Part shown: piece by piece, positions 32,777-64,000 of the stretch
Numbering within the stretch: the first letter of the stretch is position 1
How the letters are laid out: each line of letters opens with the position of its first letter
Assembly: GCA_030704615.1 (NCBI GenBank)
Contig: CM060732.1
Location: forward strand, 10,230,001 to 10,294,000
DNA length: 64,000 bases
Origin: Takakia lepidozioides
Lineage: Eukaryota > Plantae > Bryophyta
Reading direction: 5' to 3'
Notes under the pieces: model-generated
The model's input: only the letters and a program-made list of their open reading frames with translations
Told to the model about the DNA's origin: nothing
Database searches by the model: none
Position numbers and translations under genes: made by a program

Positions 32777-33029
32777 AGCCCATGTAGAAGGAGGAAGGGC
32801 TTAGTTTTGTCTGCAGTTGGTAAATGTGAGACATCGTGTCCGATCAATAAACCCATCGTACCTCACTTCTGTATGATTGTGTTTCATTGTGTTGAATAAC
32901 TGTCGGAATTGGCCCACTGTTTACAATTTGATGTCTCATTTCTACAATGTGTCTGTCCGGATGAATATAGCAGAGTAACCGGTATGTGAGTCATGTGTCA
33001 AGAATATACCAGAGTAACGCCATGTCGGA

Positions 33030-33800: not shown

Positions 33801-33932
33801 TTGGGAGCGTCGTGGTTTGGGCGATTGTGTGGCTGGAATGCACACTGGAGAGGGGTCACGAATGTCGGGCAGAATTTCCTTTATATACTCTGGAAGAGAA
33901 TTTACATTTACAGAGACTTCATTAAAATTCTA

Positions 33933-39055: not shown

Positions 39056-39489
39056 TGGCCTACGTCCGAAGTATAATTTCCGGAGCTTGCGACGAGGTCT
39101 CCTGTCTGGTGCACGAACTCCCCCCCTCTCAGGTTCGAGCATAAGAAGAACAGAGAGAGGAAAAGGGCCAAAGAGTGCAGATGGAAAGGGCGCGAGAGGG
39201 GTGACTGAGGAGACACGACAAAAGTAGATGAAACGGCGGTGATGCACCACTTGGGTTCGAAAGGGTTGGACGAAAGTGTCTCCTCGGGAGTTTGCGTCAT
39301 TACGAAATTCGAATCGTTGAGGGTACGCCTGCCGTCCGAAAAACAAACATCATTATCGAACGGTCAGGCCGCGCCGCCTCATGCCCCTTCAGTCAGATAG
39401 AGTGCCGACATGTGCAGCAATTCCGTTGCTCCACGTGTTCACATTTCAAGGTATTTCCGTCCCAGCGTCTGATGAGTTGGAGCGAAAAT

Positions 39490-41160
39490 GCGAATGCGGC
39501 GCCGCATTTCCGTTAAGTACCATCACGAAGCTACACATCCGTACTTGTTGGAAGAAAATGCGGCACCGCATTTCCGTTCCACCTTCACATACCTTAGTTG
39601 TTGAACGGAAATACGGTGCCGCATTTCCGTCCCACAGCTCCAAGTATGAGATTCAAAAGGGAAATGCGGCGCCGCATTTCCGTTCTGGAATGTCGAAAGG
39701 TGCGATTGGGACGGGAATGAGGCACAACATTTCAGTTCCCGTGGTTCATGATTTTCAATGTGAACGGAAATGCGGTACCGCATTTCCGTTCCCACTTCAC
39801 ATCCGTTAGATGATGAATGGAAATGCCGTGCCACATTTCCGTTCGGGAAAGTATAGAGGTCTCACCTGGACAGAAATGCGGTGCCGCATTTCCGGTCCGG
39901 AAAGTTTGAAGGTCTCACATGGATGGAAATGCGGCTACACATTTTCGTAGCACAGCTCCAGGCCCAATATACAAAACGGAAATGCGGCGCCGCATTTCCG
40001 TTCTAGAATGTCGGAAGGTGCGACTGGAACGGAAATGCGGTGCCGGATTTCTGTTCCCGTTGCGCACGATTTTCAGTCAGAATGGAAATGCGGTACCGCA
40101 TTTCCGTTCTGTAGAGTATTAACGTCTGACGCTGGCGGAAATGCCGTGCCGCATTTTCGTTCCACAGCTCCATGCCTCACATACAAAACGGAAATGCGGC
40201 GCCGCATTTCCGTTTTGGAATGTCGGAAGGTGCGACTCCGACGGAAATGCGGTACCGCATTTCAGTTCCGAGTTTCAGGATATTTCATCAGAACGGAAAT
40301 GCGGTGCCGCATTTTCCTTTTGAATCTAATACATTCCGTTCTGGAATGTTGGGAGTGCGACTCGGATGAAATGCGTGCCGCATTTCAGTTCCGATGTTCA
40401 CGATTTTCAGTCAGAACGGAAATGCGGTACCGCATTTCCGTTCTGGAATGTTGGTTGGTGCGACTCGGATGGAAATACGGTGCCGCATTTTAGTTCAGAT
40501 GGTTCACGATTTTCAGTCAGAACGGAAATGCGTTGCCGCATTTCCGTTCTGGTAGTATATGAATGTCTCAAGCGGTCGGAATTGCGCTGTATGAAGCTGT
40601 CGGTGTCGGAATCGCACTCGGCTCATGCATCAGATACAAAATGGAAATGCGGCGCCGCATTCCGTTCTGGAATGTCGAAAGTGCGACTCGGACGGAAATG
40701 CGGTGCCGCATTTCTGTCCCGTTGGTTTCAATCAGAACGGAAATGCGGTACCGCATTTCCGTTCTTCATACCGGTTGGAATTCGGCGTTCGTATGAATGT
40801 TGACGGAATCGGTACTCGCTCCATGCATCAGATACAAAATGGAAATGCGGCGCCGCATTTCCGTTCTGGAATGTCGAAAAGTGCGACTCGGACGGAAATG
40901 CGGTGCCGCATTTCTGTTCCCGTTTCATAAATCTCAATCAGAACGGAAATGTACCGCATTTCCGTTCCCCTTCACATACCGTGCTTGTTGAATGAAAATG
41001 CGGTACCGCATTTCCGTTCTGGAGAGTATGAATGTCTTTAAGGACGGAAATGTGCTGCAGCATTTCTATCCCTCAGCTCCATGCATCAGATACAAAATGG
41101 AAATGCGGCGCCGCATTTCCGTTCTGGAATGTCGGAAAAGTGCGACTCGGACGGAAATCT
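39490..41160. repeat. array of ~29 palindromes (CG)GAAATGCGG-YR-CCGCATTTC(CG) with a 53-bp period, between the two divergent genes
   Basis: Starts at 39556, 39609, 39662, 39715, 39768, 39821, 39874, 39927, 39980, 40033, 40086, 40139, 40192, 40245. Spacers differ but a few spacer types recur. Confidence 0.97.
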
Positions 41161-41537
41161 GGAACCTGAATGGGTTGCATTGTTCCGAAACAACACAATT
41201 GCGGCCAGTCTTGATGAGCACAACTTGGTTGTCTGACCGTTTTAAACAGCAGTCCTGGCACTTGTCAGTGCGAACGTTCCTGTCTGCACCGAGAATACTG
41301 CTGGATCCACCCTCAGGAGAAAACTGTCAGGAGATGTTATTTCGTCGCCGAATCGGCCATCATTGTCATACTCACTGGCTATGGAATCAAACCTCCCACC
41401 TTCATGCATGTAGCTTGAAACAATACTTTCCACTTCAATGTGCGACTTCCAATCGTCGATGGACTCCGCATGGTGCCTGTGAGCCTTGGTCTGTCGCTAT
41501 ACTGAACCTCGCACTTGCCAACTCCGTGCGGTGTTCG

Positions 41538-44500
41538 ATGGCTCCGAATTCCTACGCTATAGTTTGCTGTCCTCCGCAACTTGGGAGAGCCTGGATCCCA
41601 AACGAGGGAGGACTTTGCAGAGTGACTGAAACTTACCTTTGTTCCAAATTCAAGCTCAAACCGGGCACAGTTTATTTGGAAGAAGAAGGAAGGATGTTCC
41701 TGGACAGGTTGACGAGACCATTGTCGTGCTAGGTAACGACGGAGGTTGCGGAATCGAATGGCACGTTCCCCCGTCAGACACCATCCTGTACCGAGCTGTG
41801 GGAATGCCCATTCCCTTTCCGAATCAGTCGCTGCCCACACCATCCACAAAGGAGTCCGGAAACCGAGAGGCGGCCACTGCCAACAGAGAGGTATGCAACG
41901 ATAATCATTCCCGACCTGGACCGTCAAGACCCTCCATAGCTTCTCGTGTGGACGTATTCGACATTTCCGACGAGGAAGATGATTGCATTGAGGTACCCAT
42001 GTCCTCCACACGGTCGTTCAAATCCGGCATGGACGTCTCTGTAGGTGCTACGCATGTGCCCTCGAGCATAACTCCAACCCGGTCCATTGTGCAGCTCCTA
42101 CGACAACATCACCTCGATGGTTCTCGCTCCGAGCTGGCTGCTCTCGACTATGCCAAATTCCCAGTCAAGGTTTTCTGCCTCCCGAAGTCGATGGCAATGT
42201 CATCTTCGAGTTTCCACCTGTTTCTTCGTCAAAGAAAGCCTCCGGGATGTTAACAGACATGGATCGAAAGCATGACGGACACCCTGGTGTGTGACGAAGA
42301 CCAGTAGCACGAAAATTGCTGATGGTGTTCGTGTACGATATGTCCTCTGTGCGGGGAAGCTGAGGTGCCTCAATCCCACCTGCTTCCACTTTCTCTCCAA
42401 AGGAGGGCGGAGAAACGAGACGGATTGGACTGGCACAACGCATCATCCATTCATTGTCTCCAGCCAAGCTCCTGCGGGTTCTTTCAAGTGTGCACATTGC
42501 AAAGAACCACCGACGTGCATGTCCATGTGCAGAGCCAAGCAATATTACGTAATCCATTTGCTCCCGGACTTGACTAGAGCTTGCATACACGTTGGGGTCC
42601 ACTGCCACCCCTTGGCGAGAGGCAACATGCGTGAGGCTGTGCAGGAAGCACACGACATCATAAAAGAGGAGGTGAAATTGAGCCCCGGAGCCAGACCAAA
42701 GCAGATTCAGCTGAAGGCAGCCCACAAGATTGCTCTTGGCAAAATCATGTCTGAAGATGGTTCCGACCGAGAGCCCTTGACCGAAGACGAGATGCGTGAC
42801 CTCTTGGAGTCCGTCTCGCACGTTTGTAGTCCGAATGTGCGGAATCACATCGTATCTTGCAAGCAGGAGTTCGGCAGGGGGTCGGACATGTACTCAATCC
42901 TGGAGGTGAAACGAATGACTGGATATGACTACATCCAAGGTAGCAGGTTTCCAGGGCAAGGCAGCGAATCCGATCGTTGTTACATTTTCAAAATGTCGAC
43001 GTGTGGGCCTGGGAGTGGAGTCGACTTGGTCACTCGCATGACAACTGGAAACTTGTCGAATGCTTGGGTGATGTTTGATCACATCAAGCGAATTACAAAC
43101 CATCAGTGGGTGACTATGGGTGCGCATGTTTATGACTATCACTCCAAGAGGCTCATGACGATTGCAATCTGCGAGATGAAAGGGGAGGACACACAGTCCG
43201 AGATGCATCTGTGGGAGGGCATAAACGAGCAGATGGCAAGGGCGGGATTGCCAGAGCCCAATTTCAGGGGATTCATGGCAGACAACGCTCAGGCCAACTG
43301 GGCAGCGGTGCGGCGTGTGTACGGTGAGGACCCCAATGTTCCAATGGAGGGGAAAGAGAGATCCTGTGGATTCCATTGGATGCAGAGTCTATCCCACTAC
43401 ACTACCAAATTTGTTGCTAGCTCATTCCAGGCTGAACACGTGTCCTTTGTACGGCGTGGAAGGATGCACCCACATTTGATGACGCGGAGGTTAAGTTTGC
43501 TATCATCGAGGCTTGGTGGAACACGTCAGGTGCAGTGGAGACAACCAATCTGGGAGCATTGCACAGCTGGTTGGGGTGGTGGCATTTTCGGTATCGACAG
43601 TTCGGACAGTACATGCGGGAGGTAGGCTGCTGTCATTTTCGTTCATTTGTCTTTCTGTTACGGACATTTCGATTGGTCCCTCACCATTGTTTGTGTCCTT
43701 CTAGGAGCGTGCTTGGATTCCGACACGGACATGCCGAACACGAATATGGCAGAATCGGTCCACTCCTCCTGGCGAGCGTCTTCTGCCGCACATCTGGTGG
43801 ACGTAGACGGCCACAACGGAGGACATCGACAGAGCAATCATGCAGCAAGCCACGTACTACAAGTTCCTGAGCGGCAAACAATGGGGCTTTGGGCCGGACA
43901 GGGAGGAATTGTTGGTACGAACAGCTTCGAGGTCCAAGAATCCAGTGAAATGGGCGACAGCATTGCGAGAGAAGATCAAAGGGACGCCTCTGCACCGCAG
44001 AGGTGAACACCTAGAGGGGGACGTCCGGACTCGCCCTGTCAGGCGGAGGATTGAAGAGGAACCCGGGTGCGAAGAGGATTCCTGGAGATCCGACAGGAAC
44101 ATTCGGACAGCACCTCGAGGTCCCGTCATGTTGCCGCACAATGTGTCTTCCAGCAGTGGAAGCCCAAGAAATTCCAGATCGCCGTCGCCTTCAACCGGGG
44201 ATTTCGTGCAACAAATTCCCACCGCTCCCTTGCCCCACATTCCGCCCGCTGTTATGCAGTATGGCCAAGCCATTGTGGAGACGACTGTGTCTGCTCACAG
44301 TGGAGAATTGCTCGCACAAAGCCGTCGTTTCGAGGAAGGTGTTCCGCAATTCGTGTGGATACACGGCAACGTTGTTTAGAGATGATAAGGAGGAATCCAG
44401 ATGGGGCTGTCCCTGCTCCTACTTTTACAGGAAGATTTGTCCATGCAAAGTTTGCGGAGGCGACAACCACCCAGTTCTGGTTCTGCAGGCACGACATTAT

Positions 44501-45129
44501 GACTTGCGTGTATGGAAAGCCCAAGTACGGCATACAAACAATGCCAGAGGCTCCCCCGGTGTGGCCGGTGGAACCAGGCTGCGATCTGAGTCAGGTTGAG
44601 GCCGACGCCCTTACCGCCGCAGGATTTCGGATGGTGCAGCGCACTGACGTCCCCAGACAACCATTTCCGCTTCCCAGCCTCCACCACCGACCCCTGTGAG
44701 AGCAAGAACAATGGGACACGACAGCTCTAAGCATCCTACACACCGTTGGGGGAAACCGAAGAGGCGGCGACCTCCCTCAAAAGTGAACGAGACAAGGATG
44801 GGGAATGCACTTCGGATGAACTGTACAATCCAGAGCTCGACAGAAGTGCCCCACCAGGATTCGGGCGTGTGTATCAGATGGCCACGGCGGGCTCAGCTGT
44901 TCGCAATGAGGTGTACACCATCACCATTTCAGAATTACCCACCTGCAATTGCACCGACTTCCAGATCATGGCGAACAAGGGGGCATCATACTGCCCTTGC
45001 AAGCATTTGTACTACGTGTACCTAAAGAGACTCCGTTGTAATTCCACAACTCATCACTTCATACATGCACCAGGGTTGAGCCCCCAGGAGGTTCACACTC
45101 TTCTGAATATGGATCCAGGGGACCAGTGA
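41538..45129 (+). CDS. element A Mutator-like transposase (Cys/His-rich N-terminal domain, DDE core, SWIM); intron 43622-43704; several indels
   Basis: CAGKLRCLNPTC..CAHC..C..C..HVGVHCHP; VMFDH (D1), FMADN (D2), CGFH (CxxH), PNTNMAESVH (E); SWIM CNCTDF..CPCKH. Confidence 0.9.
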
Positions 45130-48100
45130 GCTTGGCTTTGCGGTCCACATACAATGGTACGCCCATCCTTTTCGGATAGTAGAACTGTACTGCTGCCAGT
45201 ACCTCAGACTCTGGCCACAGAAAGGTCCGACATATGTCTTGCCTACCAGTAACCTGTTTTGCTCGAACTAAGATATTACTATATCGTTCACTTGTTTCCA
45301 CGTGCATGTATTTTTGTATGTTGGAGGGTTCATGTTTTTGCTTTCCGAAAACTTGCTTCCTCATTCGACCTCCGACAAGGAAATGCGGCGCCGCATTTCC
45401 AAGTATCGTCGTAGGTACCCCAGAGGCGGCCTTCGCCAACACCAAACCGCTCCGAAATTTCGCACGTGCGAACCCTAATGCGGCACCCTATTTCCCAGTT
45501 CAGTTGCAAACCTTTCCCGCCGAATACCCGAAGAAGACAGAATTGTGAAGTACTGCAGACTGTATTGGTGCAGACTCCATTGGTTCAATCGCGGCAAAAG
45601 GGTCAGCTTCATTCCAATGTTAAGGCATGTAAAACCGCGGAATACTCTATACAGGCCAGTATGCGACGTCCTTTTGCAGTGGTATACTGGATTTCCCGTT
45701 GCACGGTCACTTATTTCCATGAGCGGATCTAAAAACCATGAGCGGACTTGTTACTGACGACATATCTTCGCCGCATTACATGATCTGGAACGTCCAAAAA
45801 CGGCAAGGTCAAATAAAAAACTATTATTTTAATACTTGTTTAATCTGCCGCATTTCCAAATTTGGAGGAGTCCGCTCATGAAATCCGCGTATCTTAGACT
45901 TCGGCACCGCTCATGCGGCTCATGCGGCTCATGGCTCATGGTTTCTGCTCATGAAATAGTAAACCTCTGCCAGAGAGCCCCGCATCGTTACAAAATCCGG
46001 ACAAGTGCACGTAGGAAATTCCCCACGGTAACCTGATATTCTTGCATGAAGAATGAGCCAATAGACAGCACTGTGTAAATCCGTCCATACCCCGGCAGGG
46101 ACTTCGGTGATACGAGTCACCCGAGCTGCAAAATTCTAGCCGATTCCATCTTGCAGTCGTGATCTGCCACCCGAAGCGACACGGCGCACATTGTTTTTCC
46201 ATCTCTTTTTGTTGGGTGGGAATCAGGCACCGGGTGGAGGCATTGCCGGAGCATGTGGCACATCTGTGCCACAATGCATGAGGGCACCACCCGGGACCGT
46301 GCAAGACGGAACCCTCCTCCTCCTCCAGCATGCTTATCTCGGTTGATGACAGCGACTCGTCCCAAGTTTCACAGGCCAAATTGGGGGGGGAGGGGGCTTC
46401 ATTATCACCGAAGGACGAATTGTTCCCTTGACGCATCATGCCATATCGTCTGGGCAGAACCAAAACTTGTGGTCCTTTGACTCCCCACTATGATAAGGTC
46501 GGAACAACCCTGTGAATGTTGGAGCTGGAGTCCCCCTGGAGCCTTTGCATATTTTTGATTTGCATTTCTTGAAAGAGGGGGTCCGAATTGCCATGCAAGC
46601 CACTCTAGATCCTGGTGGGGTGCGTTCTATATGCCACTCACTGTCAATGCAATCAGATTCATGCACCAAGGACACCACCTTCTCCAATGGGATTCCTGCT
46701 GCTGTGCTTGCATGATCTGCACCTACTCCACTGGAAGAGGACCCACCTGGGAAGGGGCGGGCACACGACTTAGTCTGCACCAGAGACACCTTGGTATAGA
46801 GAAATTGACCCTGTCCGGCCGATGGGAATCTCCATCCGACCCTGGAGGAGTGTTCAATTTCCTTTTGCATGATCCAAATTTTTCCTCGCCTTCCAAATGG
46901 GGGACCCTGGATTGCAAAGGGGAGCCTTCAGTGCACCTGTTCAGAGCTCTGGCCATCTTCAATGGGTCTCCGGACCTACTCGCAGCCCTTAGCATCAACA
47001 AAGTCGTATTAGGGCCTTGCCTCCGGCCCGTCATCAGAAAATTTGGTACCTGGTTTGTTGTGTAAGTGCCCGCACCATGTCATCAGCAGTGGCCACATAC
47101 AAGTCACGTCCTGCTTTGGTAGATTGCTGCATCCAGGTGTTGTGAACAGTCTCCGCCAAATTACAGGATGGCATGTCGGATTGTCAACAACCCCAAATGA
47201 ATAGGCACGATGCAAAGTGAAATTTGTGTTTCTGGGATTGAAGAGGCTTACCGTCGTCATGAAAGCTCCCCACTGTCTGTACCTGAAGTGCCAGAAGAAA
47301 CCAACCAGTCCTCCAACTCTTCAGGTGGATACCAGTAGCAGCACCAGAGGAGAACCACCAACCCGGATTGCTTGGTAAGTGCTCTCAGCTCTTGAGGTGG
47401 CATTTTTGTACTTGAGGCAGGAGCCTTCCGTGCTCCAACTGGAGGTCAGGGCGAATGCAGCGCTTGTATAACGTGCCAGAGATTGATGGAAGAGGCATGT
47501 GCGCTCCTATTTTCTATTGGGACCTTAGGATCCCCCGAACCAAACACATGCCGCACTGCATTGAAATTTGCATGTGCACTATCACCCATGAAGCCCACAA
47601 AATTTGTGTTCTGCATTCCATTGCGCTGCATGACGGCCAGGAGCAAATTCCACATGAGCATCTGGGATTCAGTGCCTCCGACTGCATATCACAAATTGCT
47701 ATGGAGAGAACACGCTGGTATGTTGGATCGTACACATGGCACGCCATGGTTGTCCAACCCTTCACCCGTTTGCAGTGATCAAACATTAACCAACATTTAG
47801 CCAAATCTCCTCCAGGTTGCATTCGGCGGACTATGCTCACACCACTGCCTTCACCCACTGTGGACATCTTGAACAAATACACCTTGGACAAGCCCTGGCC
47901 AGGGAAGATACTGTTTTGAATGAATTCATAGCGACTCCTCCGTTTGAGGTCATAATGTTGTCCATGAATCCAGCACTGCCTGTGCCCATTCTGAGTGAGT
48001 GCATTCACCTGTGGTTTCGAATATTGGGAGAGCTCAACACAGAGAAGAAATGGTCCATCACTGCATCAAGCGAAATCTGCATTCTAGCATTGGTTGTGTC

Positions 48101-48685
48101 GCATCCCCTTCACCCAGTTATGTGTTTTTCCATGAATGTCTTGCTAGCAGCAAGCGCTATAGCAGAAGGTGTTGCACAAGGGGCATTGTGGAACTCCTGC
48201 TTCAGCAGATTTCCACGCTATCTCTGCAACTTCCTTTTGACACAGGATGCTCGTGTGTACCCATATGAATGCAGGCACGAGTCATTGTCTTGCATCGATG
48301 TGCCACCTAGTACATATGAGTGTGGCACACAGAAACACATGACGGGGAAAGTTTGCAGAACCTGCACACAAAAGTATTGGTCTTGGGAGGGGCAACCCCT
48401 ACGATGACACTACCGCGTGAGCCTGGCGCGTGAGCGTGTGAGCGTACGCTCACACAATGATGACGTGGCGTGAGCCTACGCTCACGCTGCTGACATGGCG
48501 CTGATGTTGACGTGGCGTGAGCCTGGTCCAGGTCATGCCACGTCACCACAAAGAAGGTGGGCCTATAACCGTGGAGCCCCCAACTGCGGATTTCACCACA
48601 TGAAGGTGAAACGGATGAAGGGTTTTGGGCTTTCCTGGAGTTCAACCTTCTGTTAACAGGAGCTTCATTTCGTAGAACTGAAATG

Positions 48686-48880
48686 AACCTCGTGTCGACA
48701 CAAGGGGGATTTGGAGAACTTCAACAAAACCTCGTGTTAACACGAGGTTGTTTTCCTGGAACAAAAATGAACTTCGTGTTGACACGATGTTGTTTTCTGA
48801 GAACTAAAATCATCCTTGTGTCAACACAAGGAGGATTTGGAGAACTTCAAGTTAAACCTCGTGTTGAGACGAGGTTGATT
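48686..48880. repeat. five palindromes AACCTCGTGT-YR-ACACGAGGTT with a 42-bp period
   Basis: Starts at 48686, 48728, 48770, 48812, 48855. Confidence 0.92.
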
Positions 48881-49038
48881 TGATCATCTGTCTATTGAAG
48901 GTAGTTTCTTGTGTTTGCTAATGAAAAGAGAATGACAAACCAATGCGACAAATGCATTGACCCACGCATTGCAAAGATGTTAGACGACATACATTGAGAG
49001 TCACTGGACTTGAACAGTCATTCCATTACAAGTTGTAG

Positions 49039-52000
49039 TCAAGGAAAACACAAATTTTTATGGGCTTGTATCCGCTGTAGAAGTGTGTTGACTTCGTTGA
49101 AACTCATAGTGGCTTGGTGAATGAAGAAATCGCGCTTTGGATCACAAACCATCCTTCTCAAGAAGACGAAGTAAAGGTGTTTTGCACGGTATGAACTTCC
49201 CTCTCTTTCCCAAACTACTTGAAAGCATACCAACAAAATCAGGACATGTACAATTGGGAAAATTGGAAACAGTGATTTCGTACGTCCTGTCCTGCAGCGC
49301 AGATGCGGATGAGATCATGGTGAAGACCCGACCATACCCTGGATCAGGCACTTCCATTGTTCCCGCAACACGAGCGTGAAGCATTCTGGCGGACTCAATT
49401 TTGCCGTAGTGTTCTGCGGTTGGAGGGAATCGTCGAACCAGCTTCCCATTCCGTCTGGTTGCCACAAGTGAGCGTCAGGCGGAGGTACCCTGAACCGCTT
49501 CCACTTGAAGCACCTTCACGTGCAATGGAATGTCTGGCTAGGGAGAAACCCGCCTCTTCCAGCATTGCGATCTCTCGGTGAGTGAGACCTGTGCCCATCT
49601 TCACAGGCCACACGGTTGGTGGAGTAGGCTTCCTTACCACGGAAGGCCTCACTGTACCATGCACACATCTCCCACAATCGTCAGCGCAGAACCAGAACTT
49701 GTGGTTCTTTGCCTCGCCTTGTCCGTAAGGGAGAAACAAACCCGTGAATGTAGGAGCTGCAGTGCGTTCTTTCCCTCTGGAGATTAATGATGTACATTTT
49801 TCATGATTGGTGGCCCTGATCGCCGCGCATTTCACACGAGATCCAGCACTTGTGCGTTCTATATGCCAAACCTCGTCCAAGCCCATGGACTCGATTATAT
49901 GCGGCACCACGTTCTGGTCTTCAACCATTGCAGTGACAATGCTTGATGCAGGGGTCCAGTCTGGGGCAGAGTAGCCCTCACCTGTGGATGTTCCGCAATT
50001 CCATCTCTGATCCAAGGGAACACGTGGCGTCGAGAAGTTCACCCTGTCCGCCCTATGGGAATCTGCATCCGATCCCGGAGGGGTGTCCAATTTCCGTTTG
50101 CAAGACCCGAATCTCTCTTCGCCTTCCAGATGGGGAACTCTTCCCACGAGAGGGGTGCCATCTGCACATATGCTCACTGCCCGCGCTATTTTGCTGGGAT
50201 CCCCTGATCTTCCAGCTGCCCGCAACATCAACTCGCTCCTGTCCGGACCTTTGCCACCAAGGCCACCCCTCAAGAATGACCTATATCTGGTTTGCTGCTG
50301 CAGAGCACGAATGAGGTCATCGGCCGTCGCCGCATACAAATCTCTCCCTTTTTTGCCGGATTGCAACCAGGCATTGTGCACTGTCTCTGCAAGATTGCAA
50401 GAAGGCATGTCCGCCATCTCCTCAATGGACATATGCTGCAAGGCAAAAAAACAGAAAGCCGATATTAGGATTGGACCCTGAAAGATATATCCGAAGCACC
50501 CAAACGAAGGTGAATACATTGGAGGCCATAACTCGAATGAGAGCTTCCCACATGAGCTTTTGTGAATCTGTGTCCTCTAACTGCATGTCACACACTGCAA
50601 TTGTCATGACCCGCTGGTACACAGGGTCGTAAACATGACATGCCATTGTGGTCCAGTCTTTAACCCTCTTGACATGATCGAACATAAGGAAGCAGTTGCC
50701 AAGATCGCCACCCTTCTGCATACGTTTAACCAGGCTGACCCCGCTGCCCTCACCTTTTGTGGACATTTTGAACAAGAACACTTTCCTGGCTCCTTGTCCC
50801 GGGAAAACGCTGTCTTGGATGTAGTCATACATGCTCCTTTTCTTCAAATCCATAATATTGTCCATATAACCTCGGCTCCCAGAGCCCATTCTTAAAGCGT
50901 TCACCTGATTCCTAATGTTTGGAGAAGTCAAAGTTGAGAAATGGTCCATAACAGTGTCCAAAGCCGATCCCTCCAGTATTCCTCCAACCGAATTTGATGC
51001 ACACAGAATACGGCTTTCCAGAAAGGACTTGCTCGCCCCCATGGCAATTGCAGATGTGGTTCCAGTTGGATTGGTATCCAACTCTTGCCTTATCAGACGC
51101 GAGACTGTGTCAACGCTCTCCCTATAATCCCCCTTGGACACAGGGTGGTTGTGAAAACCGAAATGGACACAGGCTCTAGTCAGGGTTTTGAATCGATGCA
51201 CCACATAATACATTCTGGCGCCACACAAAGCAAGGCAGCAAGGTGGTACCCTACAGAACTTGCACACAAAAGTGTTACTGTATGGTGGTGTCACCCCAGG
51301 CTTGAATGGATTCTCACTGACACCATCCCATTCGCTTTGGTTTTGCACACCTGACAATGCGAAGTGTCTGCATTTCATGTTCTCGCATTTCAGGTGCCCA
51401 TTACAGACTGTTCGCCTGAATATGAGGTTGTCGTTGTTGTGAATATTGGAGGTTTTTGTGCGGCACCAAGGGTGCCCATCGTGCTTTTTGTCCATTCCTT
51501 CCAGGAGACTAGAAATGCCCCCCAAGCGACCAGGAGGAGGCAGCTCGAAAACAGTATTACCATCAAAAGATTCCGGCAAGAATGCCACCCTCTGAATATT
51601 GAAAGTGCTCCAGTCTATCCCCCTCAACTCACTCTTGAATCCTGCCATCCCACCCATGCTTTCAGTTTAGGAATGACACTGGTGATCTCCTCCACATCTG
51701 CTTCTACATGTGGACATGGCTGATCCACGGGCGGTATTGCACATGTGTCATCGGAGGATGAGTCCGAAAGCTCAACTACAGTGTTAACGGTACTCGTCTC
51801 CTTCTTGACAACCACGGGTGTTTTCTCCTGGGCCACTGATGCTGCCGTGCCAGGAGTTACGAAAGATCCTGCAGACTGTCTCAGAGGAGCACTGAGCACC
51901 CTGTATCTGCCTGGAGGCACTCTCCATTGTGTGGCTGGTGCAGTATGCGAAGGTTTCTGGAACACGTACTTGAGCAGTTTTCCATTGGCATCGTACACTT

Positions 52001-52163
52001 CCCTTTGAAGGAATAGAGTTCCATTTTCCAACCGAAACTGCGTTGCGAGGACGTGTTCATGCACCAGCGCAAAACCATCATCTTCCACCTCGTAAGAAAA
52101 TGGCACAGGGTGGTCCTCACTGAAGAAGTCCGCGTCAAGGGAGCCCATGGCCTGGGAGGCCAT
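49039..52163 (-). pseudogene. element B transposase with an internal deletion
   Basis: HDGHPWCRT, CNGHLKC, LMFDHVKRV, MPSCNLAETVH and SWIM CTCPDF..PCK are present. The FMAD..CxxH segment is missing at ~50518. Confidence 0.88.
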
Positions 52164-53176
52164 ATGTCGATGTTGCTTCAGAAAGTAGAGTTCACAGTCC
52201 GACGGTGCTTGTGAATGCAAATTGTGTGGGAGCGGAGTTTTTGGCGTCCTCACAGAGAATTGCAGGTATCGCTCCGGCTTGCAGATCTCCTAACGCGGGT
52301 TTCCACTTCTGTGAAATGTCTCCCCATGCGAACCAAGCGCATGGTCAAAGAGTGCCCAAATGCGGAGTCCATAATGTCAGCCCTAATCCTAGAATCCAAC
52401 TGTTTTTTCACAAGTGCCCCACCAGTGCATTCGTTGACAGATTGACTGACAGAGCCGCCGTTTGGTTGTCATGTCAGAGAGGCCAGAAGAGATGCCCATT
52501 TCCATTTAATTTTAACGGCACCTGCACCGCTGTACAACTGTACATACTTGACATTCCTCTGGAACATCCCAAAATAAATTGCCCAATAATGAACTTTTTC
52601 AGATGAGAGGTGATTAGACCCAACGATTTTTGGATGGATGAGGATCCAATGATCTCCGCCGATATTTCATAACGATTAGATGGACACGTGTTCGCCATGC
52701 ATGTGGAATGAGTCAGTGGCGCACTGAACGTTGCGAGCGAACATCTTGGCGTTGAAGGCCTTGCGATGAACCTCCCATAGTCCTCTTTTTTCCCTCTTCT
52801 CCTTATTGTCTTTGCAACCCTGGATTCTGCAGAGACGGTGACCCCATTCCGAGGGAGAAGCAAGCGTCGAAGAACACTTTATTTCACATCAAACAAGCAA
52901 AGGGCACGCGCTAAGGAGAGGATGAGGAAGGCGAGACGGGAACTTAGAAACAGGTCTTCAAAGAGCAGGGAGGACAAACGGACGCGGAAACGATGCCGTC
53001 TGCCCTTGTTTCGCACCATCGGGACCTCCTTGGAAGCATGCTACCTCCAGACCAAATGGAAAGATTGAATGCGTCAGGAGCATCATCAAGTGCAAAGAAG
53101 AAACCGGAGGTGGCTATGAACTCTCTTTCTCTCTCTCTGATTCTGTCTGGTTCTTGCTAAGCATTGAGGTCGACAT

Positions 53177-55725
53177 CAACCTTGCGTCAACGCAAGGTTG
53201 AAGTCGACCTCCTAAGTGTATATTGGGCATCAAAACAGTGCAGATGCTGCACTACAATCAAGCTAGACAGACATGGATGCTTGCGACGCATCATCAAGTT
53301 CGAAGAAGAAGAAGAGACAGCAATCTCCTTTTCCTGTAGCTTTTGTGTTTGTTCAACACCGATCCGAGAGCTCGCAATCAACCTTGCGTCAACGCAAGGT
53401 TGATGCCAACCTCCATGGTGTATGTTAGAACTTCTAGTGAAACGAACAGATGCCGCACAGGAATCAACATTGCGTTGACGCAAGGCTGGTTTTGATGATT
53501 TTTTTGTTCAATGGAAGCGTCCGATCTCTCATACCCTGAACTGTAAGGTAGGGAAAGTTGATTAGTTGAAGCTCCCAAAAGAACCCTACGTCAACGCAAA
53601 GCATTTTTTTGCTTCAAAAGTCTTTCCTGTATGCCTTTCAGTCTAAACTACCCCCATCAATCAACCTTGCGTCAAAGCAATGTTGATCCATGGGCTCAAT
53701 CTGTCACTCACAGATAATTCATTCTGTGCAGAGGAAAAGAAAAAGGAAATCCGAGGGGGAAGATTTGGCCGCGTCAGAAGGTGAAGGTGAGGAAGACTCA
53801 TTGGAGGGAAACTATGAAGACAAGGCCGAGGAGATAATTGGTGGGCAAAAAGTGAACTCGTCGAAGGTGATTCTGTCGATGGAGGTTCCCGGCGGAAACC
53901 TGGTCATTCCGCTGTGCAGGATGATCTCCATGCCCGCTGTTCGACCGGCATTGAGGAATGATATAACGAAGTTGAAGAACGACTTTGTTCACGGCTATGT
54001 CAAGGGATCAGCAGTGTTCTACGTATCCACTATGAACACGAAAGGAGAGGAGTGTCTTGTAACAGAGGACATTGAGCAAGGTTGGGATGCATGCTGGCGG
54101 GATGTAAACAGGGAGTTCGAGTTTAAGCTGTCCAAAAAGGCCTCCACAAAAGCATTCATGGGAAAGATGTTTTTTGTTTGGGATGGGAACCACAGACTGC
54201 TTGCCTGGATGGATTACATTTCAAGCTTGCACTTGGACGACATCGAATGGCACTGGATTGAAGGCGAAAGCAGAGTACTATGATTCCCACACAGAAGAGC
54301 AGCGGTCTGCAACTGGGCTTGAGGACATGAATTTCGAATGAAAAATCAATCATGAGTGCATTCGACAAACAGATCCGGATAGCAGACCCAGGTCTTGGCA
54401 CGGAATTTCTGGAGCAGGTGAAAGCACACTATGACAAGTATGGCTCCAAGCCAAAAATGACTCAAGAGAAACTACATCGCCTTTCCATTTCAATGGTGGA
54501 CAATGCAACCAAAATCAGGTGGTTGGAGATATGGAATTCGGATCCTCTTGTGAGAGACACGAACATGTTCCCAACTCCAGAGAGGGACCCGAAGACACAA
54601 GCAATAAGAGTTGTTAGCGACCACACATTCGACCAGTGGCTACACAAAGCCACATTCTGGAGCCAGGTAAGGTTTGAACCAAACCATTTTCAGACATTTG
54701 TGTTGCTCCGTAACCTCTCCCAAATTCTTACGAGCTTTCTTGTTGCAGTTAGAAAAACGTGCAGTGGCTGCACTTGCTGAGTCGATGGCAGACTACAAAA
54801 TCCAGATGGCTTGCCCCCGGATCACACTGAGGCCTATATCAGGAGATGGAAGCTCGCTGTCTGGAACAACTGCTTCTTCAGGGAGTTTGAGAAAGAGAAA
54901 GGAATCTCCAGGTCTTATGAATTCAAAAACCAGTACAACAGCGAGCAAGCAATGAAGCAAGTGTTGTACAGGTGTGACCTCCTTGAATCAAAATTGGTGC
55001 TTGAAGGGCATGTTTCTGCAATCTTGTGTCGTTCTTTCCCATAAAGAATTGCGAATTTGCAGTGCTTTGCGAGATCTCTGAGGGCTCTGCATGTGCAGTC
55101 GAGCAACATTGCGTTAACGCAAGGTTGTTTCCCATTGTCCTGGTTTCCTTACCTATACCTGGGTATCCCATAATGCCGTTTTTCTGAATGTGAAAGGGGA
55201 TAAACTGACAGGAAAATCAGCCTTGCGTCAACGCAAGGTTGATGAAGTGGCAGGCTATGTAGCTTTTCCTGTGGTTTTGGGCTGTTCAAATCCAGTTCCA
55301 ATGCTGCCAAGATGAACATAAGACTGTTTGGAGTCGGTTTGAAATGCTATTTACAACTTTCACTGTACCAACAAACAGACTTGCGTTGACGCAAGGTTGT
55401 TTGGCGGTATGGATTGCTGGAAATTTCCCGCAGCCATCCCCCGATTTCAATACAATTGTAGGAAACTTATGATTATCAGATACATTGACATGTGTTTCAA
55501 CAGAGGATTTCAACATTGCGCCAACGCAATGTTGAATATCCGCACCAGTACATAGTCAGATGGTAGTTTTCAGGCATGTTTTTCCATTTCCTCTCTGAAT
55601 GAAAACAACCTTGCGTTGAAGCAATGTTGAATTGCGCTTCTCAGTCGTTGTCTCTATCAATACAACATTATCATTTGGTGTTCCCCATTTCTGCTCGAAT
55701 GAACATTGCGTCAACGCAAGGTTGA
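53177..55725. repeat. ~10 dispersed palindromes AACCTTGCGT-YR-ACGCAAGGTT upstream of and in an intron of the B ParB-MTase gene
   Basis: Copies near 53178, 53380, 53466, 53663, 55105, 55220, 55378, 55512, 55607, 55701. Confidence 0.92.
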
Positions 55726-57773
55726 TTCGGGATTTCAAAAGTAGAATTCTCAGTGTTGCCTTCCTGCATTTCAATATCTTTTTCCGGATGTGTGTTCTTT
55801 TCGTTTTCTGATCGAATGACTGTCTGGGTTTTTTGTGTGTGATTCAGGTATATGTATCATATCCTCATACCGGGAAAGTACCTTAGCGATGACCCAGACT
55901 TCATCTATTCATGGGCTGACCCCTCCAATGACAAGACAATGTACACGGCTGGTATTGCCAAAGACTGGAGCAGGGCGCACTTCCGAGACTGTGGGTGGTA
56001 CCTCGACCTGCCAAAACAGGACACTCCATTCGATGAAGTTGTTTTGAGAAACCTGAACGACAATGCCGCAGCGATTGCCCCATTGGCTGACAAAGACATC
56101 CAGGACAGAATCATTTCGGCTCTGGCTGCAAAAGAGCCCGAGAAAACTGCTACTCCAAAACGAAAGGGGAAGATTGTCGGGGATCGAAGGGGAAGGGAAA
56201 AGTGCAGCTCCGCAAGGACAGGGACCGTCAGAGGTTCCTGAAAGACAGCCTTCTCCCAAGGAGGGATAGGAGAACATCAAAGTCGAGGGAGCAAGTTTTC
56301 GAGGCGAGAGAACATCCCTCCAGGTTTTGGGCCAGTTCAATCGTAAGGTGCTGAATGAAAGTTTTCTTGCAATGATGGAGTCCAGGAAGTCCACATTCAA
56401 GGGGTGCCCTCGAAATCATGGGACATGCTTGTTTCGTTCCTCACTCAGGTGAACACTTATGTCTAAACTGTTGTATGAATAATTGTGTTTTGGCAGCTTG
56501 TTGTGGCTTGTCCAGGGGATTGATCTCCTGTTAGATTTGGATTGGGCTTCTTACACTGTCTCATGTTTTTGGCTGTAGGTCACAAAAAGTCCGGAATGGG
56601 TGAATGGAGTTCAGCAGGCATACGCGACTGACCTTGTGGTGCTGGACATTCCTGACGGTTTTCCTGTCCCTGATGTGTTTCCTTCCAATTCGACCCCGAC
56701 TTGGAACAAATCGATTCTCGTTACTGGCAGTGGGCTTTCTCGTTCAGCAACAAGTTCCTTTCGGACTCGGGGGCTCTTCTTCTCATGCAGTCAAAGGACA
56801 TGTCGGCTCGAAGAACTCTTTTCAGCTACATGAAAGCTTCCGGGTTTCGTGTCATCAAAACTTGGACATGCATCAATACTCTGCCTCTTACGAAGGGCGA
56901 GTTCCCAGGGCAGAAAGTGAGTTGGTCCTTTCAATTGATGTTTCGTGGTTTTTGGTAAATCAAAATGGTGGGTTATGTCTTTTGTCTCATTCTCTCTTCG
57001 TGATTATTGACAGACACGGGTGTTCGAAGCTTTGTGCCTGGTGAGGCGGAAGGACACTCTTCCTGCTGGTGTTGCTGAGTTTTAGTTGAGGGACCTTGCA
57101 GCTCACATTGACCCCACCTGCGAGCCTGTGGAGGATGATGTTATCTTCAATTACGTCGACTCGGGTTGGACTATGAAAAGGTCGATTGGTGTCCCTTGGA
57201 GAGGTGCACGGGAGAAATCTCAGCTTTCATGCAGACTTTGGTGGAGACATGCAGCCATCATGGTGGACGAGTGGTTGACTTGTCTATGGGCACAGGTGGG
57301 GCCCTTCACATTGTGTTTGACATATGGGCAGTGACCTTAGGGAAACCCTGTTTTTATTTCTCGTTCTTCTTGGATTTGCAGGAGCATGTTTTCATGCTTG
57401 CAAGAGCGCCGGAAGGCACTTCTTCGGCATGGAAGCTGATACGGAGCTCTCTCTCAAGCAAGCTTCGTCAGCTTGAGTCGGGCACTACTTCTGCCCCATC
57501 CACAGAGGGACTTCTGGAGGAGCCCGAAGCCTGACGAGGATCTGGACGTGGACTCCAATTTTGAGTGTGAGTAAGTTCTTGTGTAGTCGTGCAAAATATG
57601 TTGCATTTCCTTGTGTCGTTCCCATTCGAGAAATAGTGGCTTTCGTTGTCTATATCTGGATGTTAACATCTACCACCATTCCTCTTCTTGCTTTGCAGAG
57701 TTCAGCACCAGTCATCGAATCAGCAGACACCTTTTGGTTTCCAAGGATACTACATGTCCCCGAGCCCCCCTAG
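53731..57773 (+). pseudogene. element B multi-exon ParB/Srx-like + beta-class amino-MTase-like gene (5' end uncertain, apparent deletion near 54260, frameshifts)
   Basis: IPLCRMISMPAVR..FFVWDGNHRLLAW; IADPGLGTEF; WSRAHFRDCGWYLDL; TDLVVLDIPDG; FLSDSGALLL; EKS..FMQTLVETCS..GRVVDLSMGT|GACFHACKSAGRHFFGMEAD. Collinear with the A gene. Confidence 0.8.
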
Positions 57774-58516
57774 ATCCAACCGCTTGCCGGTTTTACGCGG
57801 AAGCTTGCGCACGGGTGTTATCCGAACAAACACTGTATTCGCATCTCCATGAAGGTCGTGGAAAAAAAAACGTCATGGATGTGCTGCTGTATTCATAGAT
57901 GATATTGCTGTAAACTCTGGAAGTGGTTCCTCTAAAACCTCCAATATTTCTTTAGGTTCAAGTACCGGCTCAATAAATTGTGTTTTGGTTTTGCTTCCAT
58001 CTCCAAACTGTTTTTCAAGTTTTTTGCGCGTTCCCGTAAGTACAGTTAGGGATTGCCTAGGATAGGTCTTCGGATTGCGGAATTGAAAAATGTTTGTGTG
58101 TTGGAATGAATGTACTGCTTTGCCCAAAAAAAATGTTTGCTTTTAATATTCAGTTCTCTAGTGGACGATCTCCTCATTCCAAAGTCATGACCTCAATCAT
58201 AATTCATCCGCAAACCTGCCATTGTTCTCGGCCACAAAGAATATTCATGTGGGGGCCATGAAGAGGGATAAAAAATTAGGACATAGGCGACAGCTATCCG
58301 CGGTAATAGGGGGGGGTAAGCACGGAATTAGGGCCTGAACACGTGGATGCTTGCTGACGTGGCGTGAGCCTAGCCAGGCTCACGCGCAAGCATTCCCCCA
58401 ACCCCTAGGGTGAAAGGATTCAGGGGCACACCTTCCTACTCACTTTTGTTTGGTTTAGCGCTGTTTCTCAGGCGAGGGCAAGAAATAGTCATGCACTTGC
58501 AATGCCCAACGCAAAC

Positions 58517-59585: not shown

Positions 59586-62500
59586 GAGGTTTACTATTTC
59601 ATGAGCAGAAACCATGAGCCATGAGCCATGAGCCGCATGAGCCGCATGAGCGGTGAGCCGAAGTCTAAGATACGCGGATTTCATGAGCGGACTCCTCCAA
59701 ATTTGGAAATGCGGCAGATTAAACAAGTATTAAAATAATAGTTTTTTTATTTGACCTTGCCGTTTTTGGACGTTCCAGATCATGTAATGCGGCGAAGATA
59801 TGTCGTCAGTAACAAGTCCGCTCATGGTTTTTTACATCCGCTCATGGAAATAAGTGACCGTGCAACGGGAAATCCAGTATACCACTGCAAAAGGACGTCG
59901 CATACTGGCCTGTATAGAGTATTCCGCGGTTTTACATGCCTTAACATTGGAATGAAGCTGACCCTTTTGCCGCGATTGAACCAATGGAGTCTGCTACAAT
60001 ACAGTCTGCAGTACTTCACAATTATGTCTTCTTCGGGTATTCGGCGGGAAAGGTTTGCAACTGAACTGGGAAATAGGGTGCCGCATTAGGGTTCGCACGT
60101 GCGAAATTTCGGAGCGGTTTGGTGTTGGCGAAGGCCGCCTCTGGGGGTACCTACGACGATACTTGGAAATTCGGCGCCGCATTTCCTTGTCGGAGGTCGA
60201 ATGAGGAAAGCAAGTTTTCGGAAAGCAGAAAAACATGAACCCTCCAACATACAAAAATACATGCACGTGGAAACAAGTGAACGATATAGTAATATCTTAG
60301 TTCGAGCAAACAGGTTATGGTAGGCAAGACATATGTCGGACCTTTCTGTGGCCAGAGTCTGAGGTACTGGCAGCAGTACAGTTCTACTATCCGAAAAGGA
60401 TGGGCGTACCATTGTATGTGGACCGTAAGCCAAGCTCACTGGTCCCCTGGATCCATATTCAGAAGAGTGTGAACCTCATGGGGGCTCAACCCTGGTGCAT
60501 GTATGAAGTGATGAGTTGTGGAATTACAACGGAGTCTCTTTAGGTACACGTAGTACAAATGCTTGCAAGGGCAGTATGATGCCCCCTTGTTCGCCATGAT
60601 CTGGAAGTCGGTGCAATTGCAGGTGGGTAATTCTGAAATGGTGATGGTGTACACCTCATTGCGAACAGCTGAGCCCGCCGTGGCCATTTGATACACACGC
60701 CGAATCCTGGTGGGGGCACTTCTGTCGAGCTCTGGATTGTACAGTTCATCCGAAGTGCATTCCCCATCCTTGTCTCGTTCACTTTTGAGGGAGGTCGCCG
60801 CCTCTTCGGTTTCCCCAACGGTGTGTAGGATGCTTAGAGCTGTCGTGTCCCATTGTTCTTGCTCTCACAGGGGTCGGTGGTGGAGGCTGTGGAAGCGGAA
60901 ATGGTTGTCTGGGGACGTCAGTGCGCTGCACCATCCGAAATCCTGCGGCGGTAAGGGCGTCGGCCTCAACCTGACTCAGATCGCAGCCTGGTTCCACCGG
61001 CCACACCGGGGGAGCCTCTGGCATTGTTTGTATGCCGTACTTGGGCTTTCCATACACGCAAGTCATAATGTCGTGCCTGCAGAACCAGAACTGGTGGTTG
61101 TCGCCTCCGCAAACTTTGCATGGACAAATCTTCCTGTAAAAGTAGGAGCAGGGACAGCCCCATCTGGATTCCTCCTTATCATCTCTAAACAACGTTGCCG
61201 TGTATCCACACGAATTGCGGAACACCTTCCTCGAAAACGGCTTTGTGCGAGCAATTCTCCACTGTGAGCAGACACAGTCGTCTCCACAATGGCTTGGCCA
61301 TACTGCATAACAGCGGGCGGAATGTGGGGCAAGGGAGCGGTGGGAATTTGTTGCACGAAATCCCCGGTTGAAGGCGACGGCGATCTGGAATTTCTTGGGC
61401 TTCCACTGCTGGAAGACACATTGTGCGGCAACATGACGGGACCTCGAGGTGCTGTCCGAATGTTCCTGTCGGATCTCCAGGAATCCTCTTCGCACCCGGG
61501 TTCCTCTTCAATCCTCCGCCTGACAGGGCGAGTCCGGACGTCCCCCTCTAGGTGTTCACCTCTGCGGTGCAGAGGCGTCCCTTTGATCTTCTCTCGCAAT
61601 GCTGTCGCCCATTTCAGTGGATTCTTGGACCTCGAAGCTGTTCGTACCAACAATTCCTCCCTGTCCGGCCCAAAGCCCCATTGTTTGCCGCTCAGGAACT
61701 TGTAGTACGTGGCTTGCTGCATGATTGCTCTGTCGATGTCTCCGTTGTGGCCGTCACTACGTCCACCAGATGTGTGGCAGAAGACGCTCGCCAGGAGGAG
61801 TGGACCGATTCTGCCATATTCGTGTTCGGCATGTCCGTGTCGGAATCCAAGCACCGCTCCTAGAAGGACACAAACAATGGTGAGGGACCAATCGAAATGT
61901 CCGTAACAGAAAGACAAATGAACGAAATTGACAGCAGCCTACCTCCCGCATGTACTGTCCGAACTGTCGATACCGAAAATGCCACCACCCCAACCAGCTG
62001 TGCAATGCTCCCAGATTGGTTGTCTCCACTGCACCTGACGTGTTCCACCAAGCCTCGATGATAGCAAACTTAACCTCCGCGTCATCAAATGTGGGTGCAT
62101 CCTTCCACGCCGTACAAAGGACACGGTGTTCAGCCTGGAATGAGCTAGCAACAAATTTGGTAGTGTAGTGGGATAGACTCTGCATCCAATGGAATCCACA
62201 GGATCTCTCTTTCCCCTCCATTGGAACATTGGGGTCCTCACCGTACACACGCCGCACCGCTGCCCAGTTGGCCTGAGCGTTGTCTGCCATGAATCCCCTG
62301 AAATTGGGCTCTGGCAATCCCGCCCTTGCCATCTGCTCGTTTATGCCCTCCCACAGATGCATCTCGGACTGTGTGTCCTCCCCTTTCATCTCGCAGATTG
62401 CAATCGTCATGAGCCTCTTGGAGTGATAGTCATAAACATGCGCACCCATAGTCACCCACTGATGGTTTGTAATTCGCTTGATGTGATCAAACATCACCCA

Positions 62501-63877
62501 AGCATTCGACAAGTTTCCAGTTGTCATGCGAGTGACCAAGTCGACTCCACTCCCAGGCCCACACGTCGACATTTTGAAAATGTAACAACGATCGGATTCG
62601 CTGCTTTGCCCTGGAAACCTGCTACCTTGGATGTAGTCATATCCAGTCATTCGTTTCACCTCCAGGATTGAGTACATGTCCGACCCCCTGCCGAACTCCT
62701 GCTTGCAAGATACGATGTGATTCCGCACATTCGGACTACAAACGTGCGAGACGGACTCCAAGAGGTCACGCATCTCGTCTTCGGTCAAGGGCTCTTTGTC
62801 GGAACCATCTTCAGACATGATTTTGCCAAGAGCAATCTTGTGGGCTGCCTTCAGCTGAATCTGCTTTGGTCTGGCTCCGGGGCTCAATTTCACCCTCCTT
62901 TTTTATGATGTCGTGTGCTTCCTGCACAGCCTCACGCATGTTGCCTCTCGCCAAGGGGTGGCAGTGGACCCTAACGTGTATGCAAGCTCTAGTCAAGTCC
63001 GGGAGCAAATGGATTACGTAATATTGCTTGGCTCTGCACATGGACATGCACGTCGGTGTTCTTTGCAATGTGCACACTTGAAAGAACCCGCAGGAGCTTG
63101 GCTGAGACAATGAATGGATGATGCGTTGTGCCAGTCCAATCCGTCTCGTTTCTCCGCCCCTCCTTTGGAGAGAAAGTGGAAGCAGGTGGGATTGAGGCAC
63201 CTCAGCTTCCCCGCACAGAGGACATATCGTACACGAACACCATCAGCAATTTTCGTGCTACTGGTCTTCGTCACACACCAGGGGTGTCCGTCATGCTTTC
63301 GATCCATGTCTGTTAACATCCCGGAGGATTTCTTTGACGAAGAAACAGGTGGAAACTCGAAGATGACATTGCCATCGACTTCGGGAGGCAGAAACGTTAC
63401 CTTTCTGACTGGGAATTTGGCATAGTCGAGAGCAGCCAGCTCGGAGCGAGAACCATCGAGGTGATGTTGTCGTAGGAGCTGCACAATGGACCGGGTTGGA
63501 GTTATGCTCGAGGGCACATGCGTAGCACCTACAGAGACGTCCATGCCGGATTTGAACGACCGTGTGGAGGACATGGGTACCTCAATGCAATCATCTTCCT
63601 CGTCGGAAATGTCGAATACGTCCACACGAGAAGCTATGGAGGGTCTTGACGGTCCAGGTCGGGAATGATTATCGTTGCATACCTCTCTGTTGGCAGTGGC
63701 CGCCTCTCGGTTTCCAGACTCCTTTGTGGATGGTGTGGGCAGCGACTGATTCGGAAAGGGAATGGCCCACAGCTGGTACAGGATGGTGTCTGACGGGGGA
63801 ACGTGCCATTCGATTCCGCAACCTCCGTCGTTACCTAGCACGACAATGGTCTCGTCAACCTGTCCAGGAACATCCTT
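59586..63877 (-). mobile_element. element A2: second, inverted, near-identical copy of A (right TIR and transposase 60436-63877)
   Basis: Reverse complement of ~41691-45967, beginning exactly at the TIR GAGGTTTACTATTTCATGAGC, with a different flank from A1. Confidence 0.95.
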
Positions 63878-64000
63878 TGCACCAGGGGGTCGGGACACAT
63901 GAGGGGCTGCCCCTGTGGTGGGGGCAGCAGCGATAGGTATGGGGGCTGAAGCACCCTTGTGCCCAAGGCACTCAAGGAGGCGGAGGCGCTCACTAGGTGG
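63878..64000. mobile_element. start of an unrelated insertion in A2, possibly an LTR
   Basis: Identity to A1 stops abruptly after CATCCTT; the new sequence begins TG. Confidence 0.45.

Follow-up and report, generated by a model that had tools for sequence, protein, structure and literature searches.

Described systems and the Takakia lepidozioides locus

In the Ectocarpus element Sola1-1_Ec32, an accessory protein with a ParB-like domain and an N4C/N6A-type methyltransferase (MTase) is encoded on the strand opposite to the transposase, and its authors, who cite Iyer 2011, propose that it binds and modifies its own element (PMC12477816; statements on published systems, here and below, refer to the accessible parts of the sources). 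Red algal Plavaka elements (Bostrychia and others) contain a ParB accessory gene with adjacent tandem inverted-repeat arrays across families; homologues of these accessory genes (PAG) were reported in Chondrus Mutator elements, and self-binding was proposed (bioRxiv 10.1101/2025.02.11.637652). According to the same source, VANC alone among transposon proteins has been proven to recognise its own family and relieve its silencing. The VANDAL/VANC elements of Arabidopsis have family-specific short motifs, often in tandem, in intronic, intergenic and terminal non-coding DNA (PMC5735166), and the bacterial palindromes parS and NBS (Noc-binding sites) are bound two-fold symmetrically (PMC7383237). 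Here we describe two families of Mutator-like elements (MULEs), A and B, found in a stretch of 64,000 nt of the moss Takakia lepidozioides (CM060732.1 of GCA_030704615.1, positions 10,230,001-10,294,000, forward strand; hereafter the window). Each family carries a helper gene for a ParB-like and MTase-like protein and its own palindrome, which is repeated in the non-coding DNA of the element. The feature is a land-plant version, carried by Mutator-like elements, of a design that was proposed earlier for red and brown algae.

By description, A and B resemble Sola1-1_Ec32 in having a ParB and methyltransferase fusion opposite the transposase of a large DNA transposon; the host there is a Sola-1 element of a brown alga, whereas GCM/SWIM Mutator-like elements of a land plant are involved here, and motif IV of the A and B helpers lacks the aromatic residue. 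The description of Sola1-1_Ec32 mentions neither palindromes nor specificity for a family. Plavaka PAG3 and PAG2, likened by description as well, share a ParB accessory gene beside inverted-repeat arrays but belong with a different transposase superfamily, and PAG3 joins ParB to a 2-oxoglutarate (2OG) oxygenase with the methylase in the separate gene PAG2, whereas the MTase-like domain of the A/B helper is fused. VANDAL/VANC is similar in combining a Mutator-type element with an accessory gene and family-specific non-coding motifs (here in two families of one window). However, the VANC21 motif is the 9-base YAGTATTAY and not a long dyad, VANC is neither ParB nor MTase, and its anti-silencing is proven (PMC5735166), whereas that of the A/B helper is our proposal. 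ParB/parS and Noc/NBS have in common with A/B an N-terminal ParB fold (predicted in A/B), dyads of 16-22 bp in several copies, and paralogues with diverged palindromes (PMC7383237); the A/B helper differs in showing no helix-turn-helix (HTH) match, in its fused MTase-like domain and in being a spliced eukaryotic gene.

An earlier note on this DNA had compared the two families to VANC proteins and their motifs. The comparison holds for the family-specific motifs in non-coding DNA but not for the protein, which by its predicted ParB and MTase folds, and with no other Pfam family above cut-off, is not a VANC homologue (no VANC sequence was compared directly); ParB/parS and the algal ParB accessory genes are closer. 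Literature searches, with most subscription journals outside their coverage, found no publication that describes Mutator-like elements with ParB-MTase genes in land plants, or palindromes specific to families.

Family-specific palindromes in A and B

The A word is AAATGCGG-YR-CCGCATTT, YR being a pyrimidine-purine step. The window contains 25 exact copies and, at ≤2 mismatches, 42 (shuffles 0/100), 41 of which lie in the element A1 and one (60167) in a second A copy, A2. When perfect arms were required and the spacer was left free, the spacer was YR in 25/25 sites. The two arrays that the earlier note had described as flanking the helper gene were found, together with the single copies within the gene (35102, 36362 and 37569), all of them in GT-AG introns, and those reported near 31900 and 45382, which were located at 31899 and 45381 (Table 1).

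The B word is present in two perfect copies (53178 and 53380) and, at ≤3 mismatches, in ten (shuffles 0/100), distributed as previously noted, with four upstream of the helper gene and six in one of its introns; an eleventh site is at 53582 (5 mismatches). The variant palindrome indicated near the left end of B has six copies at 48644-48876, one of them perfect (48728), and its arms carry A in place of the G of B (12/12 versus 0/22 half-sites). Read from the dyad centre, the half-sites are R-CCGCATTT in A, R-ACGCAAGGTT in B and R-ACACRAGGTT in the B variant. The A and B words are variants of one core, W-TGCGK-YR-MCGCA-W, with four half-site positions that differ. Full dyads, and not half-sites, are enriched: 41 dyads versus 11 isolated A hexamers were counted in the 15 kb of A1, and no isolated B hexamer in element B.

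Neither full palindrome was seen in the other family or in the first 30 kb, in agreement with the earlier note. The best match to the A consensus in B has 4 mismatches and falls in coding DNA, the best B match in A has 6, and in the first 30.6 kb the best matches have 5 (A) and 3 mismatches (B). The latter is a lone near-site (15723; full extent 15721-15742) in AT-rich DNA whose surroundings show no homology to elements. Viral contigs contained neither an exact A or B site nor a ParB or transposase relative.

All sites avoid the coding sequence of our exon models (0/41 A sites and 0/17 sites of B plus B variant), which were built from GT-AG sites and homology with the site positions known, and which cover 58-59% of each element. 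Inside the A helper gene, 3/3 sites are intronic, with introns making up 15% of the gene. The layout is common to both families, with helper and transposase genes diverging from an array and more sites following closely 3' of the transposase; only A has an array on the 3' side of the helper gene. One homologous phase-2 intron contains sites in both families, a single one in A (36431-36286) and six in B (54972-55847). Since the site positions are homologous and the words different, the two families kept the positions and changed the word.

At the B sites and the dispersed A sites, the central 16-22 bases are conserved and the flanks unrelated, and in the A array at 39492-41118 the site columns are ≥90% conserved versus 20-70% for spacer columns. 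The central YR is CG or one of TG, CA and TA, the steps that deamination can make from CG. Among A half-sites, CpG decay affects 35/82 positions in the spacer versus 1/164 in the arms, and the 14 dispersed sites alone give 10/28 versus 0/56 (p=5e-6); the test assumes an ancestral CG spacer, and with freely chosen YR steps the arms would still be constrained. Site spacing is helically phased, the mean cosine peaking at 10.5 bp (0.47; p=0.0015, 20,000 jittered sets), both in A alone (p=0.026) and in B alone (p=0.020). For this test repeated unit lengths were collapsed by hand to 25 distinct values, some A spacings being sums across a decayed site.

In our reading the palindromes are selected sites in non-coding DNA, family-exclusive within the window. 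It is very unlikely that tandem amplification and hairpin-driven conversion left them as by-products, or that they serve a host factor, with no role for an element protein in either case. Tandem repeats, with copies that are not independent, do make up the main A array and the B-variant array, and the lone B-like near-site lies outside recognisable elements; however, unrelated flanks at the B and dispersed A sites, arm CpGs that resist decay and phasing of the non-tandem B set (B alone, p=0.02) argue against by-products, and a host factor would leave the family-specific words unexplained. A main role as RNA or cruciform hairpins was considered and rejected, as a hairpin would need neither the YR centre nor the helical spacing.

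The helper protein and the candidate binders of the palindromes

The A and B helper proteins are homologous along their whole length, and both gene copies are broken. The A copy carries a 1-bp frameshift where exon 2 begins, and the B copy lacks ~450 bp near 54255, just after the ParB exon, as seen from a gap relative to a related sequence, B1, and from loose contig ends at 54252. In two RNA-type runs, which come from two studies and whose RNA label is a guess, contigs connect 57292 with 57379 at GT..AG across the B intron 57296-57381, and the two DNA runs compared do not have this join; B-like copies are probably transcribed and spliced. No RNA run was listed as containing B.

The helper family is large, with 883 matches at E ≤0.001 among 50%-identity representatives, and its named homologues belong to the liverwort Riccia sorocarpa and to two species of the fern Adiantum. 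The ParB exon of A aligns to the Riccia homologue family at E=3e-19. In the model of one Riccia homologue (P0087), confident over the ParB-like part only, the N-terminal domains of ParB, Noc and KorB fill the top 13 structural rows, the best ParB-type match having Z 8.7 and a root-mean-square deviation (rmsd) of 2.3 over 99 residues, with sulfiredoxin lower at Z 6.0. ParB also takes the first Foldseek rows for P0087, where E-values are weak; all Foldseek E-values, for helper and transposase alike, exceed 0.001, and the fold calls rest on rank and Z. The motif G-N-H-R, of the GxxR type, is present in A and B and is the commonest form among 150 matches.

By language-model features, the exon of the window itself resembles both ParB clusters and clusters of fungal DUF3723, and residues 70-315 of a homologue (P0013), its ParB region, score 0.96 versus the fungal DUF3723 clusters. 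The helper family may be linked to these fungal proteins, DUF3723 presumably being a gene of the fungal Starship elements; a literature search found no publication mentioning both DUF3723 and ParB. Pfam gave nothing above cut-off for the open reading frames (ORFs) of the window, the ParB homologues or the transposase homologues, sequence searches of the PDB found neither ParB nor GCM, no ParA partner was seen, and no ParB relative was found in genome contigs. A 6.7-kb contig of an invertebrate assembly (B1:C1:3754-6170) is 76-84% identical to the B helper gene; it is probably plant contamination, with horizontal transfer as the alternative.

From the observed sites, with their placement, constraint and helical spacing, we infer a binder, its clamp, its specificity and its effect. 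The helper protein is probably the binder and, given that it is, binding likely tells A from B. In the mechanism that we propose, a two-fold symmetric dimer of the predicted ParB-fold helper would read both arms across the flexible YR step and be closed into a clamp by a nucleotide (CTP in bacterial ParB), and phased sites would seat several dimers on one face of the helix. The clamp would spread from the arrays across the element, preventing host CG methylation from closing the divergent promoters and the element body, in a logic like that of VANC, and binding would recognise copies of its own family. That the helper is such a ParB-type dimer, loading on parS-like dyads and spreading to keep the element open, with a non-catalytic or altered MTase domain, seems to us an evenly balanced proposition, and the chance that anti-silencing, and not plain autoregulation, is its main effect is about half.

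The MTase-like domain shows weak DpnA/CcrM matches with the motif order IV then I, and A and B align to both motifs. PF01555 matches three Riccia homologues at E=1e-5 to 5e-5 (23.7-26.2 bits), just under the cut-off of 26.7. The S-adenosylmethionine (SAM) binding motif and the Asp of motif IV are kept in A, B and the Riccia proteins. The canonical catalytic motif of beta-class enzymes is (D/N/S)-P-P-(Y/F/W); motif IV of A and B reads D-I-P-D-G, with an Asp at the aromatic position, and the aromatic is missing in 20/21 homologues that have motif IV (29 were examined, eight others being without the region). One fern homologue keeps it (D-V-P-F-G). The domain, which lacks the catalytic aromatic, is more likely to be a scaffold that binds SAM or DNA than a writer.

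The helper could also bind the sites to autoregulate the two divergent genes, like KorB, or actively write N6-methyladenine or N4-methylcytosine (6mA/4mC) with an unusual catalytic motif, a possibility to which we assign a small chance. It would fit the densest arrays of A and B, which lie between the divergent genes, KorB among the predicted fold matches, the retained SAM-binding motif and motif IV Asp, the near-threshold PF01555 matches and the aromatic residue of the fern protein. Intronic sites and sites 3' of both genes fit coverage of the whole element instead, and the lack of the aromatic in A, B and nearly all homologues with motif IV speaks against a writer.

The other candidate binder is the transposase. 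The N-terminus of the B transposase has the GCM structure 1odh as its top Foldseek row (probability 0.91, E=0.023) and matches the GCM domain with Z 6.5 and rmsd 4.1 over 133 residues, moderate scores with WRKY also listed; a SWIM profile was matched at E=0.018 (A) and 0.16, short of the cut-off, no Pfam MULE match was found in the ORFs of the window or the transposase homologues, and the catalytic core is poorly modelled. Animal GCM binds ATGCGGGT (PMC2172107), the first 6 bases of which are those of the A half-site ATGCGG-YR, and WRKY-GCM1 domains are DNA-binding domains of MULE transposases (PMC1702500). A pair of GCM-fold domains might occupy the inverted half-sites, either to organise the transpososome or to control the divergent promoters, with the helper a mere neighbour; that the GCM domains of A and B differ (41% identical) suits this reading. 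We consider it a real alternative, but an unlikely one. The sites are concentrated in the helper gene and near it, at distances of up to 8 kb from the element ends, and are nearly always full dyads, and GCM binds DNA as a monomer. The visible parts of the related elements C and D, which leave out their helper-side halves, show no array in the stretch from subterminal motif to SWIM stop that in B contains six sites. Subterminal repeats are the usual place of transposase binding, and separate ones following the transposase lineage are available, namely CATGAGC in A and GCGTGAGC in B, C and D; the C and D transposases are nearer to that of B (up to 72-82% in tblastx segments).

The proposal of the earlier note that helper and site have co-diverged as a self-recognition code stood in part. 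The sites are selected-looking, family-exclusive and non-coding and lie beside a ParB-fold gene, but the co-divergence is confounded because only two families were examined and every part diverged. Identity between A and B is 49% in the ParB domain, 32-34% in the post-ParB pieces, 36% in the MTase piece and 41% in the GCM domain, data consistent with co-divergence of helper and site. The region after the ParB domain, singled out earlier as the variable part that should correlate with the site, was rejected as specially variable, its 32-34% not standing apart from the 36-41% elsewhere. The relatives examined outside the window are five short metagenome loci (1.3-1.8 kb each), two of which, L001 and L005, close to each other and distant to A/B, share a perfect palindrome that differs in its centre and lies upstream of the ParB exon. 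It is a single palindrome of 20-24 bp with the core TGTCGGATCCGACA, amid dispersed GGGCTAGCTTAGGGG-type repeats (L001:216-239, L005:389-408).

Several points weigh against a family-specific helper clamp. Beyond the ParB domain, neither an HTH nor another DNA-binding fold gave a match; the P0087 matches stop near residue 337, and the P0087 model is weak in this region (helical, with a predicted local distance difference test score, pLDDT, of 47-72). The CpG ratio of 0.87 in A and 0.67 in B, versus 0.45-0.50 around them, would likewise be given by younger insertions. The TGCG core common to A and B makes cross-binding possible, and the single helper gene of B is accompanied by two site types, which may mean tolerance, a second binder or a chimeric left end; the SWIM tail of B is 78% identical to that of D. 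Three of the five related loci are without a clear palindrome, only two families with gene and arrays were compared, all of whose parts diverged, and the GCM-like fold predicted for the transposase, with the A half-site matching the GCM motif, counts on the same side.

The side-by-side pair of A and B, with homologous site positions and different words, makes the specificity directly testable. If the helper clamp is real, a clamp derived from bacterial partition would be a second self-recognition system, nucleotide-driven sliding clamps would work on eukaryotic chromatin, and the action of a short motif over an element of 10-15 kb would be explained. Plant-native orthogonal protein-site pairs could serve locus labelling or epigenome editing. 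Tentatively, land-plant Mutator-like elements may have adopted ParB/parS as a self/non-self code, in which family-own clamps on phased palindromes spread and shield the element from silencing; when families split, protein and site would change their specificity jointly, like ParB and Noc.

The nest of elements in the window

The right half of the window is a nest of related Mutator-like transposons (A1, A2, B, C and D), the features of which are given in Table 1.

Table 1. Elements, genes and palindromic sites of families A and B in the window.
Feature	Position	Strand	Description
Element A1	30623-45967		15.3 kb Mutator-like, within SWIM-coding tail of element C
Element B	48401-58398		10.0 kb Mutator-like, within GCM-coding part of element C
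Element C		transposase on -	Host element interrupted by A1, B and D
Element D	from ~58517		Inserted in C; itself interrupted by A2
Element A2	59586-64000		Second A copy, inverted; D interrupted from 59586
A helper gene	33936-38874	-	ParB-like N-terminal domain (38064-37619), helical region, beta-class MTase-like domain
A helper motifs	motif IV (D-I-P-D-G) near 35430; SAM motif near 34810	-	Exon model from homology and GT-AG
A transposase	41630-45129	+	GCM-like zinc domain, MULE-like core, SWIM; frameshifted copy
B helper gene	53732-57570	+	ParB-like and MTase-like; motif IV (D-I-P-D-G) near 56645
B transposase	49041-52290	-	N-terminal domain with predicted GCM fold
A site	31899-31916		Between divergent paralogous ORF pair
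A array 3' of helper gene	33035-33794		12 sites, flanks mostly unrelated, spacings about multiples of 10.5 bp
A site	35102-35119		Intron 35166-35070
A site	36362-36379		Intron 36431-36286 (phase 2; counterpart intron holds six sites in B)
A site	37569-37586		Intron 37618-37507, directly after ParB exon
A array between divergent helper and transposase genes	39492-41118		24 sites, 53-bp unit (5 helical turns)
A site	45381-45398		3' of transposase; second copy with 3 mismatches at 45476
B-variant array 3' of B transposase	48644-48876		6 sites, 42-43-bp period (4 helical turns)
B array between divergent genes	53178-53684		5 sites, unrelated flanks
B sites in intron 54972-55847	55105-55723		6 sites, flanks unrelated, spacings 114, 158, 135, 95, 95

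Target-site duplications of MULEs are 8-11 bp, and those found here, 8 bp and exact in B (CAACCCCT) and 7-8 bp and imperfect in A1, fit Mutator-like elements. Long terminal inverted repeats (TIRs) were not found in A or B, which have degenerate ends with short inverted subterminal repeats only; MULEs without TIRs exist. In A1 the subterminal repeats are found at both ends, and a contig of one RNA run starts matching the element at 30623. A2 is 98.5% identical to A1 across 4.3 kb and has the homologous A site at 60167. The sequence CCTATNACCGTGG was rejected as a marker of element ends, which the target duplications put 110-170 bp further out.

In run X5 the summed contig depth is 192,000-565,000 along A1, whose whole span is covered, and mostly 12,000-49,000 inside B, far higher than the depth of ~50-75 of most single contigs listed. 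The A and B families look abundant, although summed depth does not give a copy number.

A motif found at 30183, 30729, 30752, 48562, 58298 and 58721, CCTATNACCGYGG or its reverse, lies 110-200 bp inward from the element ends in A, B, C and D and is common to the families despite their different subterminal repeats. The termini of A and B (30623, 45967, 48401, 58398) are asymmetric, the helper-side end starting with GGGG and the opposite end differing. All four insertions (A1, B, D and A2; 30485-59585) are in transposase-coding DNA of a related element, which hints at a target preference for kin.

Inside A1, the divergent paralogous ORFs 31085-31728 (-) and 32113-32776 (+), which have the A site at 31899 between them, are 49% identical over 138 residues, have no Pfam match and belong to a high-copy unit. 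Just left of the transposon nest ends an exon (28970-29230), which we take to resemble the C-terminal helicase motif of UPF1-like proteins.

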